NCBI GenBank assembly: GCA_049966395.1
Contig: JBMFUT010000004.1
Span: forward strand, 1 to 34,609
Source of the DNA: Candidatus Micrarchaeia archaeon
GTDB taxonomy: Archaea > Micrarchaeota > Micrarchaeia > Micrarchaeales > CABMGC01
Length of the DNA: 34,609 nucleotides
Reading direction: 5' to 3'
In this document: positions 15,001 to 21,000 of the stretch, piece by piece
Numbering within the stretch: the first letter of the stretch is position 1
How the letters are laid out: every line of letters starts with the position of its first letter
Position numbers: made by a program

Positions 15001-18000
15001 GCGCGTATCATTTGGGGTGGCACTGGACCTGAATGCTGCAGTTTTGGATTTGACCCAACATCTGTCGCTATGAACCTGTTGCCAAGGAACTCGCCAGCCA
15101 TTGCGAGCCCTGCCGCTATCTTTGGTTTTTCCCTAGGTACCAGATTTGCATCGCCGACCCAGCCCACTGTGCCTCCTGGCGACACTACTATGTATCCTAC
15201 AGGTATGGGTTCTATGTTGAGCATCTTAACTATTGGCGCGGCGAGCACCTGAACCTGCGTTATCCAGTAAGGATTTCTTGCGTTGAGTAAAGACATGAAG
15301 TATACTGCATCTGCGTATTTCGTGAGCGTCGCTATGTTTCCAGGAAATAGTATTACCGGAGTCCCACCGGCCTTGTCTTTTATGCCCTTGCATACATAGT
15401 CTAGTAGCTCGCCCTGCGCGCCTATGCTACCTCCTACAAGTATGAGGTCTGCGCCGGCGTCTATGCTCTCCACTGCGGTTTTTATAGCGGCGTCTGGCGT
15501 CTTGTAATCTACCGGATCTACAAGCATGAACATCATTGCTCCCTTTTCTGCCAGTCTTTCGTAGATGTACCTTTCTGTCTTGCCTATTTTCACGCTCATC
15601 TTATCACGCTTTATAATTATAGCATTCTTCTTTTAAGCAGGTCGTCTATCATCTCCTTGCTTCCTACGTTGATGTTTATCATTGGCTTGAAACCGAGATT
15701 GCTCTTTATTTTTGTTATGTCTATTACCCTGTTGCTAAGCAGGAAGCGCAGCTCGTCGCTGTTGAGGCCCTTGTACTTGCCGAGTATCTTTGCAAGAAAG
15801 CTTAAGCTTATTCTCTTTTTGACCTTTTCTACCCCCATAAGCGACGCTGCAATGTCAAAGAGACCTTTTTGGGTATACGGCACTCCGTCTGACAGGTTGT
15901 ATATTTCTCCTGCGCCAGGGGCGTTTTTGGCAAGCATGAATGCCTGCAGCACGTCGTATAGGTGTATTAGGGCAAGATGATTTTCGCCGTTGCCTATTAT
16001 ATAGGCTTTGCCTTCCTTTATGGCGCGGAAAACCTTAGTAAAAGATTCCTCGAAACCTGGCCCGTATATTGTTGCGATTCTGAAAGTAGTTGTTGGAAGG
16101 CTCCTGCTAAATTCCTTTAATACGTTTTCTGCGAGAAGTTTACTGTAGCCATATGGATCTGTAGGCATCGGCCTCGAATTCTCAGTGAGAATCTCCTTTC
16201 TTTTTATGCCGTATACGTCCACGCTGCTCGGGAATATGAAATGCCGCACGCTACTGGCTTCGGCTACTTCCGCCAAGTTCCTTACGCCGTTTACGTTCAC
16301 GTTTATTATTTCAGTGCTCTTCTGCTTGTACGCGCTTACTATTGCCGCCAGATGGAAAACGCTGTCGCAGCCGTCAAGCGCGTCCTTGAGCGCCTGCTTG
16401 TTGGTTATATCGCCTACGTAAGGTATTACTCCTCCTGGAAGGCTAAGTATGTCACCCTTTTCCTTGACGAGCGCCCTTACCACTCCGCCTTCCTTAAGAA
16501 GAACTTTTAGCAGCGCGTTCCCCAGTTTCCCCCCTGCGCCAGTTACCAAAGTAATGTTGCCCTTGTCGGCTATTTTGCTGTCATCGTTTTTTTGCAATTG
16601 CATCACCGCTTGTTGATGATTTCTTGACACCCTCCTTCAAAAGGCTCGACGCCAGACGCCGCATATAGCCTTCAGGCACGGTGTCAGTGGCGTATTCTGC
16701 CCAGTCCCTGCCAAAAGGCATGTATATGCTCACCTTCCTGTTCTTTGTTATCTTGCCCATCTTTTTCTCGCTGTAGCCTAATTGAAATTCAAACGCCACA
16801 TTATGCCTGTTTGGGCTTTTGGAGAAATACTTTAGCATTTCATCGTCAGGAGAAAGAAGGACAAGGGTGTTTATTTTGCTTGAGAGCTCTTCAAGCATGC
16901 GCGGAAGGCGCTTTTTGTAGTCTTTGGACTTGCCTCCGTCATCCCACTTGCACAGCACCTTCACCATCGGCGCTGAGACCTTCTTTTTGACGTAGCTCAA
17001 CGCGTCGTCGATGCTGCTGAAAAATATTCCTAGGCCTCTATTGCCTGACATCTCGTTGAGCAGCGCAACGTCTGTGGGAGTGCGGGCTTCTGCCCATATG
17101 AGTATGCCGTACTTCCTGCTTATTTCTAACAGTCTGAGCAGGTTGAGCTTTGCTATGTCCTTGCTTATGCCACTGCCAAGCTGCGCCATGCGAAGGTGCA
17201 CGCTAGACTTTATTCCTTGCCTTGCCATCTCCCTTATCAGCTGCGCGTATGCATTAGATATGTAATTCGCTTTCGCCCTAGCGCTCGGGGTGTCGCTCAA
17301 GAAGGCTATTGACACTGGCAGGCCCTTTGCATTTATCGCCTTGGCCTTTTTTATTGCAGAGTTCATTGTAGGCCCGGCAATGTGCTTCCTTATGAGCCTG
17401 AATATCACTTTTTCAGCGAAAGATTCCGATTGCAATTTTATCATCTATGCGAGCATTCTGACGATATTATTAGACAAGGATATATTTAAACTCTTTCGCA
17501 AATTTCTTAAACTGACTTATTGCAAAGGCAAAAATATATATATGAAGCCGCAATTTCAATCCGTGCTTACTTTAACACTTTCAAGGGGAAAAGGGATAGG
17601 AGGCTCTTTGAAGCAGAGCGCGGATTCTTTTGTAGTTAAGGAAATTGCAAAAAATGGTATTGCCATGTCTCCTGGGGTGCGCTATTCCGCTGCAGACCTT
17701 GGAGAAGTGGAAAGCAATGATGGCAAGTTCGTTAAGTTTGTTCTTCAGAAAAAAAATTGGGACTCGATACACGCGCTTCAAGAGATAGCTAAGAGGATTC
17801 ACAGGGGCGTGCGCTCCGTCGGGTATGCCGGAATGAAGGACAAGATTGCTACTACAGTGCAGCTGGCGAGCGTTTTCGGAGCCAAAGCAGCGGAGGTTTC
17901 TAGGGTAAACATAAAGGACATATCGATAAACGGTGCATGGCAGTCTTCAACAGGGGTTGAAATGGGGGACCTTGAGGGCAACGCCTTTGAGGTGACTATA

Positions 18001-21000
18001 GAAGGGGTGGATGCGAACAGCGACGCGATAGATGGCGTATATGCAGAGCTTTCAGGGATTGCGCCTAACTACTTTGACAGGCAAAGATTCGGCATAAGAC
18101 TCAACAACCACATCGTTGGAATGCACATAGTCAAAGGGGAATTCGAAGCTGCCGCGCTGGAGTTTCTCACCGGCACATCCAACGAGACAAACGAGGCTGC
18201 GCTAGAAGCCAGAAGGAGGCTTGCTGAAGAAGGAGATTTCAAAAAGGCGCTAGATTACTTTCCGGCGTATCTCAGGTATGAAAGGGCAATGCTCGCTCAT
18301 CTTTCAATAAACCCTGGTGATTTTGCAAATGCCATAAGAAGGCTGCCTAGGGGAATTTCACTGCTTTTCGTGCACGCGCTTGAAAGTTATATATTCAACA
18401 GGGCTTTGGAAAAGAGAATAGAGTCAATGGACATCAACGCGGAAGGCGGGCTTTCTTGCAACGCCGATGCGCAGGGCTTCCCTGACATTTCAAGCACTGG
18501 GGTAGGACACGAGGGGAAGTTCGCGGTTGGAAATATCGTCGGCTACGATACAAAAGAGGCGTATATGAGCTCGTATGAGAAAGAGGCGCTTGAAGAGATA
18601 GGGATATCTAAGGATGAATTCAAGATAAAATCTATGCCGGAGCTCAGCATGAAGGGCGCATTCAGGGTCTTTTTTTCACCATTTAAGGATTTCAGCTACA
18701 GCATAAGCGAAAATGCAGTAAAGATGAAATTTTCCCTGCCTGCGGGATCCTACGCTACGGTGCTTGCAAACGAGTTCATGAAGAACTCCTGCCTTAGTTT
18801 GGATCCTGCTACTGCGCGTTCTTGAAAGCGGCTATTACGTTCAGCATGTCCTCCTTGACGGCGCTTTCGCTTCTGTTCCCGCTGAGCATTGAGGAGCGTA
18901 TCGCTGCGTTAACTTCTAGGAGTGCCCTTGATGCCATGAGCGCGTAAACCTGTTCTGCAATCCAGAACTTGTCAGCAGCATCTAGCATTTGGAGCACTTT
19001 GTTTTCTGTCTTCTTTGTAGAGTGCCTAAAGTGGCGCATTGCCTTCGCTATCTCTGAGATGCTTGATTCCTCTTTCTTTATCATTTTTGATGCAGAGTCA
19101 AGCGTAACTGCCGCTTCAAGTCTGCCAATTTCGCCTGGCTTTGCTTCGTTGACAAACCTTGCTATGTCCCTTATGTCACGGTTTATCATGCTCACTGCAG
19201 TCTTCAAATCATATTCTTTTATATATCCTTCCCACCTGCTAAGCTCAGAGTCTATGAAATGCTTCACATCTGCAGATACCGTTCTTTTGCTGTTAAAGGA
19301 TTCTAGCTCGCTGAGCAAACCGCTAAGGAATTTCGTATTTATGCTAGAATTCTTTGCAAATTCATTTATGTTCTTTAGGTCATCATATATGCCGCCCAAG
19401 ACCATAGAAAGCGCTTTGCTTATTTCCTGCTCTGAATATTCTTTATTTGCAGTTTTCTTGCTGCGCAATATAGTAGCTTTTTCAGAGAGGGCTGTCATGT
19501 CGTTTATGTAGTTGCTGAATTCAAGCGAGCCCATTATCTCTTTTACTACAACGCCCTGCCCGCTGACAGTGTATGGCGTTGGGGCAATATTCTGATTATT
19601 TTGAACTTGCAGGTTATTTTGAGGGGTATCCTCCTGCTTGTTCTGTACCGGTTTGCCGATGACATATGCAGCGTCTTCTTTTTTGTTTCCGCTGTTTGCA
19701 TCGTTTTCTTCTTTAGTGGTGCCCATTGCCGCAATTGACACTCCAAGGTCGCCGTAGCTCAAGAGCATTTTTTTGAGCATTGCCGCCCTTTCCTTGAAAC
19801 TATCGAATTCATAAAGGTCGTAATGCTTTGGCGATCCATTCTTGGTGTGATTTTCTAGGTACTTGCTGTGGAGCTCCTTGAGCGCAGCAGACTCTTCCGC
19901 ACTGCCTTCCTGCGCCCTGATATAATGGTGCACCTTTGGACCCATGCTCTCAATTTGAACCTTCTCCACATCCCTGCCCAGCCTGTTTGCAGCCTCAGCA
20001 ACGGCTTCATTTAGGTCGAACAAAGCAGCATTAAGCGCGTCTACGCCCTTGCCGGTGACACCTTCCTCCTGGAGCGTCTTTCCAAAAGAGAACCAGCCGA
20101 CTACTTCAGAATTAATCTGCCTTATCTCCTGCTCGCTGGAATTCTTATCTAGTTTCGACACCTTGTCTTTAAGCTCCTCTATACGCTGGGCGACCAGCGT
20201 TTTTGCTTCTGGATTTGCTTTTACTTCTATAGTATTTACCGTGTCTAGCGTTTTTACAGTCATAGTAATCAAATATCTTTGATGTTTTTATGATATTTAA
20301 ATATTATGCTTTGGGGTGGCATCTAGCAATGGTATGCTGGATTTCCATTTTTATGATAAATTCTTGCAGAATATTGTGAAACGCCGGCTCTAGAGTTTGC
20401 AAAAAATAAGTATGGCGCCGGAGCTGGGATTTTCATGCGCATTTTGAACCCAGAATGCCAAAAGGCAACCAGATCTCGAGTTTCGCCAAAGCTACTGGCG
20501 CGTTACCTGGTTCTGCCACTCCGGCCCATTGATAGTATTGCATTATAGAATTTTATATATTGCTAATGCATGCATGTGAAGTTGTTCGGCAAGTATATAG
20601 CAAAGTCTGGGTTTGCGTATACCTCTCTTGAATCATTGATGTTCAGTATTATTCCCTGAGGACCTATGCTGCTGAATGATAATATTGGATAACGCATTTC
20701 AGTCGCATTTTCGTAGAAGGGCATGTAGGCGTGTACGCCGAGATAGCGCATGTAAGGCCACGCGTTTGTTATCACTCTGCAGTTGCCATAGCCCAGCGAG
20801 GCCAGCTCGGCCTTGGCGTTGGAATACAGGGAATTGCTGTAATAGGGATTGTAGTAATAAGAAGAGGAATACATGCTGGCGCTATAGTACCACCACACTG
20901 CATAAGAGAGTACCGCTATCGCGATCGCGCCAATTACTATGCCAATACTAATAGAGTGAATCTTGGGTCTTTTGCCTGCTTTCTGTTGCATTAGGGTAAT

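Follow-up and report, generated by a model that had tools for sequence, protein, structure and literature searches.

A canonical truD gene in the window

The window, a stretch of 34,609 nucleotides from a Candidatus Micrarchaeia archaeon whose genome (G000) is 89% complete in 34 contigs, carries one truD/pus7 gene, and an Rfam search confined to the window at gathering thresholds returned three tRNAs (Table 1).

Table 1. Positions of the features of the window that are discussed in the text
Feature	Position	Strand	Support
truD/pus7	17542..18825	+	427 aa; PF01142 full-length match
tRNA-Val(GAC), C55 in place of U, U13 (possible TruD substrate)	12666..12736	-	aragorn; RF00005 66 bits
tRNA-Ala(UGC), normal U54-U55-C56	25251..25322	-	aragorn loop TTCGACT; RF00005 67.8 bits

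Judged by its sequence, the truD product is an ordinary, canonical stand-alone TruD/Pus7. PF01142, with a cut-off of 27 bits, is the sole Pfam family on the protein; the match scores 343.6 bits and spans positions 9-412 of the 412 in the profile. Residues 16-419 align full-length with the solved chain 1z2z_A (E 3e-57), which is annotated as 'probable tRNA pseudouridine synthase D'. The motifs AG.KD...T.Q and PNYF..QRFG are intact: GYAGMKDKIATT stands opposite SVAGTKDKRALT of 1z2z_A and NYFDRQRFG opposite NFFGIQRFG, and the Asp of the G-x-K-D motif is presumably the catalytic residue. An alignment of 16 TruD proteins of the phylum (four from the clade of families f1 and f2, 12 from other families) revealed no clade-specific insertion or motif change, and in it the protein looks closest to that of the one g4 genome included; moreover, the PF01142 scores of the in-clade proteins lie inside the range of other families. 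The ATG at 17542 agrees with the N-termini of the relatives, and a longer frame from GTG 17290 would overlap the divergent gene ending at 17444. U13, the candidate substrate available to TruD, is present in 16 of the 32 tRNA genes, and the enzyme most likely isomerises U13 in this half or so of the tRNAs and possibly acts at a few other sites.

TruD as the only detectable pseudouridine synthase

Six-frame searches of G000 with Pfam and NCBIfam models matched TruD at this locus alone and gave no match to TruB_N (PF01509), Pus10 (TIGR01213), Nop10p (PF04135), PseudoU_synth_1 (PF01416, TruA), PseudoU_synth_2 (PF00849, RluA/RsuA) or Gar1 (PF04410). All six known pseudouridine synthase families were each searched with positive controls, and all positive controls of the profile searches across the phylum (TruB_N, Pus10, Nop10p and TruA) behaved as expected. 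The survey's finding that the genome has no pseudouridine synthase gene besides truD, with TruB_N, PseudoU_synth_1/2 and Nop10p all missing, was thus reproduced, and TruD appears as the only detectable pseudouridine synthase of this 89%-complete genome. Its claim of a missing Gar1 is matched by the blank result in G000, but the model is uninformative for the phylum: it passed its cut-off in none of 121 genomes, even where Cbf5 occurs, and in only two of four archaeal controls.

Phylum-specific HMMs, built from eight Cbf5, four Pus10 and six Nop10 proteins and run unfiltered (--max) against all six frames of G000, reached at best 6.7, 7.9 and 12.3 bits respectively. As controls, these HMMs gave 253 and 326 bits for Cbf5 (G083 and G086), 343 bits for Pus10 (G062), and 57 and 31 bits for Nop10 (G062 and G083). 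The best Nop10 score in G000 falls in an aIF2-gamma-like frame. A hidden synthase fusion partner is argued against by the absence of the PUA domain from all five in-clade genomes searched and by ThiI being the sole THUMP protein of G000. Moreover, TrmA-like PF05958, an alternative U54 enzyme, was over the cut-off in none of five in-clade genomes, and the Psi-dependent Nep1 was found in none of 61.

Loss of Cbf5 and Nop10 in two families

The distribution of these genes was tallied in a phylum sample of 121 genomes (61 from f1, f2 and G000, 60 from 15 other families) and in an order set of 248 genomes (247 from f1 and f2 including G000, plus G216, the sole member of f18). All are metagenome-type assemblies; two genomes flagged as unpublished (G029 and G139) are included, and the conclusions are the same without both.

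TruB_N, the mark of Cbf5, was found in none of the 247 f1 and f2 genomes (0/61 within the phylum sample) versus 59 of 60 genomes in the 15 other families, and Nop10p was over its cut-off in 0/61 versus 57/60. TruD, on the other hand, is present in 227 of the 247 and in 85 of the 86 order genomes that are at least 90% complete (one of the 86 lies outside f1 and f2). TruA (PF01416) occurs in one of the 121 genomes, and the RluA type (PF00849), for which the survey had not searched the relatives, is over the cut-off in none. Fourteen Nop10p matches below the cut-off in f1 and f2 lie mostly in frames of ~403-409 aa (the others from 165 to 1213 aa); the same frame type is weakly matched in other families next to a true Nop10, which bears out the survey's view that they belong to another protein; the counterpart of this frame in G000 resembles aIF2-gamma. 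Elsewhere in the phylum, family f3 is without TruD instead.

The pattern is a property of the clade and not of one bin. Four single-contig genomes (G038, G042, G033 and G016) are without Cbf5, Pus10 and Nop10 and with TruD, fibrillarin and L7Ae. Where G083 and G216 have the gene order (L34e-)cmk-L14e-Cbf5, contig C17 of G000 and G038 have L34e-cmk-L14e followed directly by an aminotransferase-like gene, so that the empty Cbf5 slot is seen in two genera. Fibrillarin and L7Ae are kept in f1 and f2, with two L7Ae-family matches per genome in each of five in-clade genomes; L7Ae is common to the H/ACA RNP, the ribosome and the C/D RNP. The survey had extended the absence of Cbf5 and Nop10 to the whole order, which stands for f1 and f2 but not for f18: in G216 (82% complete), the contig that carries Nop10 also shows the canonical order cmk-L14e-Cbf5. 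Loss of Cbf5 and Nop10, the catalytic core of H/ACA, with retention of TruD in f1 and f2 is thus strongly supported by absence in single-contig genomes, at the syntenic slot and under the unfiltered phylum HMMs. Since the catalytic subunit Cbf5 is undetectable, an H/ACA complex would be impossible in these families.

Scattered retention of Pus10

Pus10, the tRNA Psi54/Psi55 synthase, was over the cut-off of TIGR01213 in 0/61 f1, f2 and G000 genomes versus 44/60 others of the phylum sample, and in four of the 248 order genomes: G124 of f1, and G263, G264 and G265 of one f2 genus. A further Pus10 piece, interrupted by a contig end, probably makes G215 the fifth. The enzyme is thus kept in genera g72, g94 and probably g88, and none was found in 22 sampled f1 genomes at least 90% complete or in seven g4 genomes. 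The claim of an order-wide absence of Pus10 therefore has to be narrowed to G000 and nearly all of its relatives. Because three f1/f2 genera keep it, Pus10 was lost repeatedly or regained, and not lost once. The Pus10 model cross-detects Cbf5 in other families and finds nothing of the kind in f1 and f2. Pus10 is also missing, with Cbf5 kept, from f5, f7, f9, f10, f14, f16, f17 and parts of f6 and f13.

TrmY (PF04013), whose known substrate is Psi54, is present in three of the 61 sampled f1/f2 genomes, namely three of five sampled genomes of g18 (f2), and all three are without Pus10 and Cbf5. The TrmY neighbourhoods hold no candidate synthase gene. Another source of Psi54 could exist in g18.

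T-loops of the tRNA genes

The T-arm of tRNA-Val(GAC) reads tggag-TCCGATT-ctcca in the aragorn prediction. Its orthologue also has C55 in G038, of another f1 genus, and U55 in G083, of a family with Cbf5 and Pus10; C55 fits, and does not prove, a relaxed need for U55. Among the in-clade tRNAs examined, U54 is kept in 88/88 and U55 in 77/88. Tested against four genomes with Cbf5, three of which also have Pus10, non-U55 tRNAs numbered 11/88 versus 4/57 (Fisher p = 0.40, with relatives that are non-independent). These rates do not separate the two groups, and thus the tRNA genes show no clear signal of relaxed constraint. Two f1 genera have C55 in tRNA-His, tRNA-Val(GAC) and tRNA-Lys(CUU).

Proposed history and alternative explanations

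We propose that cbf5 and nop10 disappeared in the ancestor of the sister families f1 and f2, which ended RNA-guided (H/ACA) rRNA pseudouridylation; that Pus10 would have been lost afterwards in nearly all descendant lineages, including G000; that no TruA, RluA or RsuA enzyme would remain; and that the C/D-box methylation RNP (fibrillarin and L7Ae) would have been retained. We give this explanation as a whole, with TruD left alone, a probability of about 0.75. From the observed gene content, phylogenetic distribution, empty slot and intact TruD, we infer that rRNA is without guide-dependent pseudouridine, that tRNA U54 and U55 are unmodified and that the cell tolerates both; the ribosomes and tRNA elbows of G000 and its relatives may be nearly free of pseudouridine. 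The survey's reading of a joint loss of H/ACA and of the Psi55/Psi54 enzymes is upheld in the core gene content of f1 and f2, and gives way in its order-wide scope and in a uniform absence of Pus10.

Several lines of evidence bear on whether pseudouridine is still made by other means. A divergent or non-homologous synthase that makes Psi55, and perhaps rRNA Psi, would account for the TrmY of the three g18 genomes that have neither Pus10 nor Cbf5 and for the conservation of U54 and U55, and there is room for one among the many G000 genes without a family, such as 10 of the 30 scanned ORFs of the window. We nevertheless consider it unlikely: all six known synthase families were covered by controlled searches and the phylum HMMs gave only noise; the Pus10 model, which picks up Cbf5 elsewhere, was silent in f1 and f2; the PUA, THUMP and TrmY-neighbourhood searches yielded no candidate; and U54 and U55 are needed structurally even when unmodified, T-loop architecture being described for unmodified transcripts (PMC7912444, in excerpt). 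A TruD whose specificity has widened to U55, rRNA sites or both would fit the keeping of just one synthase in 227/247 genomes, and yeast Pus7 is multi-site and modifies 5S rRNA (PMC11077068 and PMC8481954, in excerpts). Such widening is nonetheless highly improbable given the unremarkable in-clade proteins and their ordinary PF01142 scores, and other families hold TruD beside Cbf5 and Pus10, so that its retention needs no new role.

The missing 11% of G000 and its 34 contigs could conceal a Pus10 gene, in which case only the H/ACA part would be lost here, as the genera that keep Pus10 might suggest. The chance of this is very slim, in view of the blank f1 and g4 samples; besides, Pus10 of G124 adjoins a class-I LysRS that both G000 and G024 are without, leaving no shared neighbourhood to be hidden in a gap, and the flanks of the g94 arrangement carry other genes in G000. 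That the absences stem from faulty binning or assembly or from insensitive searches has, within the reach of the tools used, next to no probability: the assemblies are of metagenome type throughout and the genome search used a loose pre-filter, but Cbf5 is found in 0/247 and TruD in 227/247 of the same genomes, several single-contig genomes repeat the pattern, the syntenic slot is empty, and the independent unfiltered HMM search had its positive controls.

Few features of archaeal and eukaryotic translation are as highly conserved as Cbf5 and Psi55. The odds are, in our estimate, slightly in favour of two DPANN-type archaeal families with ribosomes without guide-made pseudouridine and with unmodified tRNA U54 and U55. 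They would be the first archaeal lineage without Cbf5, and theirs the first translation system of the archaeal-eukaryotic type to do without it. If so, f1 and f2 could dispense with the supposedly universal Psi55, and the C55 tRNAs of two f1 genera could be the first consequence at the sequence level. The clade, with ~247 species-level genomes, would offer a natural experiment on the purpose that pseudouridine serves in the rRNA and at the tRNA elbow, with internal contrasts in the genera with Pus10, in f18 with Cbf5 and in f3 without TruD; the order has co-cultured members, in which Psi mapping would be feasible. Cbf5, Nop10 and Pus10 serve as archaeal marker genes, and their systematic absence would lower completeness estimates for the clade.

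Comparison with known systems

The TruD of G000 shares full-length homology and both core motifs with archaeal TruD/Pus7 (the Methanosarcina-type 1z2z and S. islandicus aPus7). Pus7 is one of four proteins found in >90% of archaea (PMC8481954, in excerpt), and the S. islandicus enzyme aPus7 makes Psi13, its gene being the only synthase gene open to deletion, with Cbf5 and aPus10 reported as essential (PMC11077068, in excerpt). In G000, by contrast, TruD stands alone, and the two enzymes essential there are absent. With the archaeal box H/ACA RNP (Cbf5-Nop10-Gar1-L7Ae and a guide sRNA), f1 and f2 share L7Ae, while Cbf5, which can also make Psi55 without a guide (PMC3443816 and PMC1616971, in excerpts), and Nop10 are undetectable; unlike them, other families of the phylum have Cbf5 in its usual L14e-Cbf5 context, and Nop10. 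The families that keep Cbf5 and are without Pus10 show a partial loss of a redundant pair, whereas f1 and f2 would have taken the reverse path, losing Cbf5 first and then Pus10, to end with neither.

A literature search found no published report of an archaeal clade without Cbf5 and mostly without Pus10. The survey had regarded a lineage of cells with no enzyme of the TruB/Cbf5/Pus10 type as new; this is too broad, as three hemoplasmas, M. genitalium and M. pneumoniae are reported to have no TruB (PMC4014445, in excerpt), and the novelty of the loss would be confined to Archaea and to the H/ACA RNP. The Mollicutes resemble f1 and f2 in that a near-universal Psi55 synthase was dropped during reductive evolution in small-genome, host-associated cells. 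They differ in being bacteria that, according to the same excerpt, all keep the rRNA synthase RluD, whereas in the archaeal families f1 and f2, across ~247 species-level genomes, the rRNA machinery would be gone too.

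The truD gene and its neighbourhood

The gene truD/pus7 encodes a 427-aa product without internal stops, which matched Pfam TruD (PF01142) at 343.6 bits over profile positions 9-412 of 412 and no other family. Residues 16-419 can be aligned to the solved archaeal chain 1z2z_A, annotated as "probable tRNA pseudouridine synthase D" (E 3e-57). In an alignment with 15 TruDs of the phylum (three from the Cbf5-less clade described below and 12 from other families), the motifs AG.KD...T.Q and PNYF..QRFG were conserved, the Asp of the first (AG.KD) being the catalytic residue, and no insertion specific to the Cbf5-less clade was present among the 16 proteins. 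The start was placed at ATG 17542, near which the N-termini of relatives also begin; a start at GTG 17290 was rejected, as the longer frame would run into the divergent upstream gene. The truD gene itself is ordinary.

No other pseudouridine-related gene was found in the window, the remaining genes of which are archaeal housekeeping genes (Rpb7-like RpoE, GluRS, PcrB/GGGP synthase, tRNase Z, NFACT, NAC and glycosyltransferases). Several long ORFs near truD, including both of its immediate neighbours, matched no Pfam family. A tRNA gene is cut off by the contig end, and its joining across the contig ends by aragorn in circular mode was rejected as false.

Coordinates of the features discussed (G000, genome under study; C, contig; L, locus)
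Feature	Location	Strand	Basis or remark
truD/pus7	window 17542-18825	+	427 aa
ORF without Pfam family	window 16584-17444	-	Pfam scan, E 1e-4
ORF without Pfam family	window 18812-20272	-	Pfam scan, E 1e-4
ORF without Pfam family	window 20566-21993	-	Pfam scan, E 1e-4
ORF without Pfam family	window 25696-27825	-	Pfam scan, E 1e-4
ORF without Pfam family	window 28004-28960	+	Pfam scan, E 1e-4
tRNA gene, 3' part	window 34555-34609	-	RF00005, 35.7 bits
tRNA-Val(GAC)	window 12666-12736	-	C at T-loop position 55
tRNA-Lys(CUU)	G000 C1 37428-37504		non-U55
tRNA-His	G000 C3 48992-49063		non-U55
tRNA-Ala(CGC)	G000 C15 18901-18973		non-U55
L34e-cmk-L14e	G000 C17 9428-10515		no cbf5 after L14e
Class-I LysRS	G038 C1 359029-360081		PF01921
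Class-I LysRS	G124 C18 4571-5596		PF01921
TrmY-type gene	G067 (genus g18), L300 1459-2055	-	PF04013
TrmY-type gene	G105 (genus g18), L301 1477-2070	+	PF04013
TrmY-type gene	G048 (genus g18), L302		PF04013

Absence of other pseudouridine synthases

Six-frame family searches of the whole assembly (34 contigs, 693,655 bases, completeness 89%) returned a single TruD match and none to TruB_N (the Cbf5/TruB family), TIGR01213 (Pus10), Nop10p, Gar1, PseudoU_synth_1 (TruA) or PseudoU_synth_2 (RluA/RsuA). Moreover, HMMs derived from 8 Cbf5, 4 Pus10 and 6 Nop10 sequences taken from the phylum's other families were run with all HMMER filters off against every stop-to-stop frame of at least 30 aa: the maxima were 6.7 bits for Cbf5, 7.9 for Pus10 and 12.3 for Nop10, and positive genomes of other families scored 253 (G083) and 326 (G086) bits for Cbf5, 343 bits for Pus10 (G062), and 57 (G062) and 31 (G083) bits for Nop10. 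The 12.3-bit match lies in a 411-aa frame bearing GHVDHGKTT and two CxxC pairs, presumably aIF2-gamma, which agrees with the survey's finding that weak Nop10 matches fall in frames of ~403-436 aa belonging to another protein. With the other synthase models unmatched and our own HMMs at or below 12.3 bits, TruD stands, as had been proposed, as the only detectable pseudouridine synthase of this genome. The assembly being incomplete, the case for Pus10 being absent from this genome is drawn from its relatives.

No PUA domain was detected in this genome or in four single-contig relatives of the clade, G038, G042, G033 and G016 (0/5; controls 13/14), an absence that bears too on other RNA enzymes that carry PUA. 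A TrmA-like U54 methyltransferase likewise nowhere passed the cut-off (0/5). The sole THUMP protein of the genome in the family search was ThiI.

Distribution across the phylum and the order

Our phylum sample comprised 121 genomes: the genome under study with 22 others of its own family (f1), 38 of the second family of the order (f2), and 60 from 15 other families. In this sample the three proteins reported as lost were confirmed to be absent from the f1 and f2 genomes and usual elsewhere: TruB_N was found in 0/61 vs 59/60 genomes (the single miss in family f3; controls 14/14), Nop10p over the cut-off in 0/61 vs 57/60, and Pus10 over the cut-off in 0/61 vs 44/60. The Pus10 model gave no match whatever in the 61 genomes and cross-matched Cbf5 in those other-family genomes that stayed below the cut-off, so this search was highly sensitive. 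TruD was present in 61/61 vs 50/60 genomes. Among all 121, TruA occurred once and RluA/RsuA never over the cut-off; Gar1 (PF04410) was likewise 0/121, yet the model also missed two of four archaeal controls, which renders that result uninformative. Family f3 (G001, G012, G013, G025, G053, G081, G110 and G120) showed the reciprocal pattern, with TruD in 0/8, Pus10 in 8/8 and Cbf5 in 7/8.

Across the whole order (248 genomes, the one under study included), TruB_N was missing from all 117 further f1 genomes, all 129 f2 genomes and the genome under study, and present in the lone genome of the third family, f18. TruD was found in 228 of the 248 and in 85/86 of those at least 90% complete; the absence of Cbf5 therefore cannot stem from incompleteness. 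Four in-clade genomes, G038 (771,545 b), G042 (852,977 b), G033 (814,439 b) and G016, are single contigs.

The gene order tells where cbf5 is missing. In other families the classical cluster reads L34e-cmk-L14e-Cbf5 (G083) or Cbf5-S13-S4 (G086), or holds all of these together (G006). L34e-cmk-L14e stands in the same order in the genome under study and in G038, which belongs to another genus of f1, and in both an aminotransferase-like gene follows ~75 bases after L14e. Thus in two f1 genera cbf5 is missing from its conserved place. Fibrillarin and two L7Ae-family proteins were found in 5/5 in-clade genomes tested, the one under study among them; RNA-guided 2'-O-methylation has probably been retained while RNA-guided pseudouridylation is gone.

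Exceptions and history of the losses

The claim that Cbf5 and Nop10 are missing throughout the order holds for f1 and f2 (Cbf5 in 0/247 genomes, Nop10 in 0/61 sampled) and fails for f18, whose only genome (G216, 82% complete) carries cmk-L14e-Cbf5 and Nop10 together on a single contig. The H/ACA core has hence been lost from f1 and f2, not from the order as a whole. Pus10 was not found in G216. Nor is Pus10 missing from every genome of the order, as the survey's finding had it for the genomes searched: it scored over the cut-off in one f1 genome (G124, genus g72) and three f2 genomes of genus g94 (G263, G264 and G265), and a fragment in G215 (f1, genus g88) runs to the contig end and is therefore probably part of a whole gene. 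TruD is thus the sole recognisable pseudouridine synthase left in f1 and f2, bar these four or five genomes. The genomic observation is real and robust, and more precisely delimited than before.

In the simplest history, the ancestor of the order would have had both Cbf5 and Pus10; f18 would have lost Pus10, like several other families of the phylum; cbf5 and nop10 would have been lost in the ancestor of f1 and f2; and Pus10 would have gone later, at least once in each of the two families and probably more often. Alternatively, the Pus10 of these f1 and f2 genera may have been regained by transfer. In G124 the gene adjoins a class-I LysRS with 62% identity to that of G038, by which its contig looks native to f1. 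The Pus10 loci of G124 and g94 share no neighbourhood with the genome under study, so a "clean deletion" of Pus10 cannot be shown. LysRS type seems to differ inside f1, judged by class I (PF01921), the one class compared: two genera have it (G038 and G124), and in three others (the genome under study, G024 and G215) nothing passed the cut-off.

Psi-dependent methyltransferases and tRNA genes

TrmY methylates Psi54, and Nep1 is the other Psi-dependent methyltransferase. TrmY (PF04013) was found in three f2 genomes of genus g18, all of them without Pus10 and Cbf5; outside the clade, 1/60 genomes carried it. This cuts against loss of Psi, as it leaves an enzyme without its known substrate. TrmY in g18 may be a recent import lacking a substrate, it may act on another one, or Psi54 may be made there by some other source; among the genes neighbouring TrmY no hidden synthase was apparent. 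Nep1 (0/61 in-clade, 6/60 outside) is too sparse in the phylum to serve as a co-loss test.

Of 32 tRNA genes in the genome under study, 16 have U13, the classical TruD/Pus7 target, and four lack U55, with C55 in Lys(CUU), Val(GAC) and His and G55 in Ala(CGC). The three C55 genes are common to this genome and G038, and U55 stands in their counterparts in G062 (His and Lys-CUU) and G083 (Val-GAC), both of which have Cbf5 and Pus10. However, drift of the T-loop was rejected as a clade-specific marker of loss: over four in-clade vs four out-clade genomes (~400 kb per relative; related, not independent), non-U55 tRNAs numbered 11/88 (G000 4/32, G038 5/24, G033 1/20, G042 1/12) vs 4/57 (G103 1/7, G086 1/7, G062 1/20, G083 1/23; Fisher p = 0.40). 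G55 tRNA-Ala occurs on both sides, in several families of the phylum, some with Cbf5 and Pus10. The C55 T-arm of tRNA-His, a 17-mer, matched at least 120 places in GTDB genomes (by our estimate ~70 expected by chance), and a tRNA was present at 58 of 80 loci among the matches listed (L039-L118), in bacteria including TruB-type organisms, CPR and other DPANN. Examples of tRNA genes with this C55 T-arm, CCGGGTCCGATTCCCGG, are tRNA-Thr(GGU) of Polaromonas/Rhodoferax and, in CPR and other DPANN, tRNA-Ala, -Gly and -Pro. With C55 tRNAs spread so widely, a lone one proves nothing; as a sign of loss, non-U55 tRNAs are suggestive at most for f1 and not discriminating overall. S. islandicus has U54 and U55 in all 46 tRNAs (PMC11077068).

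Comparison with known systems

That ribosomes and T-loops in f1 and f2 are nearly free of Psi is a reasonable reading of the gene content, to which we give a probability of roughly 55-60%. Cbf5 can form Psi55 independently of guide RNA, and Psi54/55 are products of Pus10 (PMC3443816, PMC1616971, PMC6380271). In the full texts searched, a set with subscription papers largely outside it and without supplementary tables, no paper described these archaea as having lost Cbf5, Pus10 or the H/ACA RNP; the supplementary tables of PMC8481954 and PMC4014445 may contain phyletic profiles that bear on the loss.

Pus7 is one of four proteins represented in >90% of archaea surveyed (PMC8481954). In S. islandicus, Cbf5 and aPus10 are essential, and aPus7, which makes Psi13, can be deleted (PMC11077068). 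A cellular lineage without any TruB/Cbf5/Pus10-type enzyme had been put forward as new; cells lacking TruB have already been published for the Mollicutes. PMC4014445 lists M. genitalium, M. pneumoniae and three hemoplasmas as having no TruB, and states that RluD, an rRNA synthase, is retained throughout the Mollicutes.
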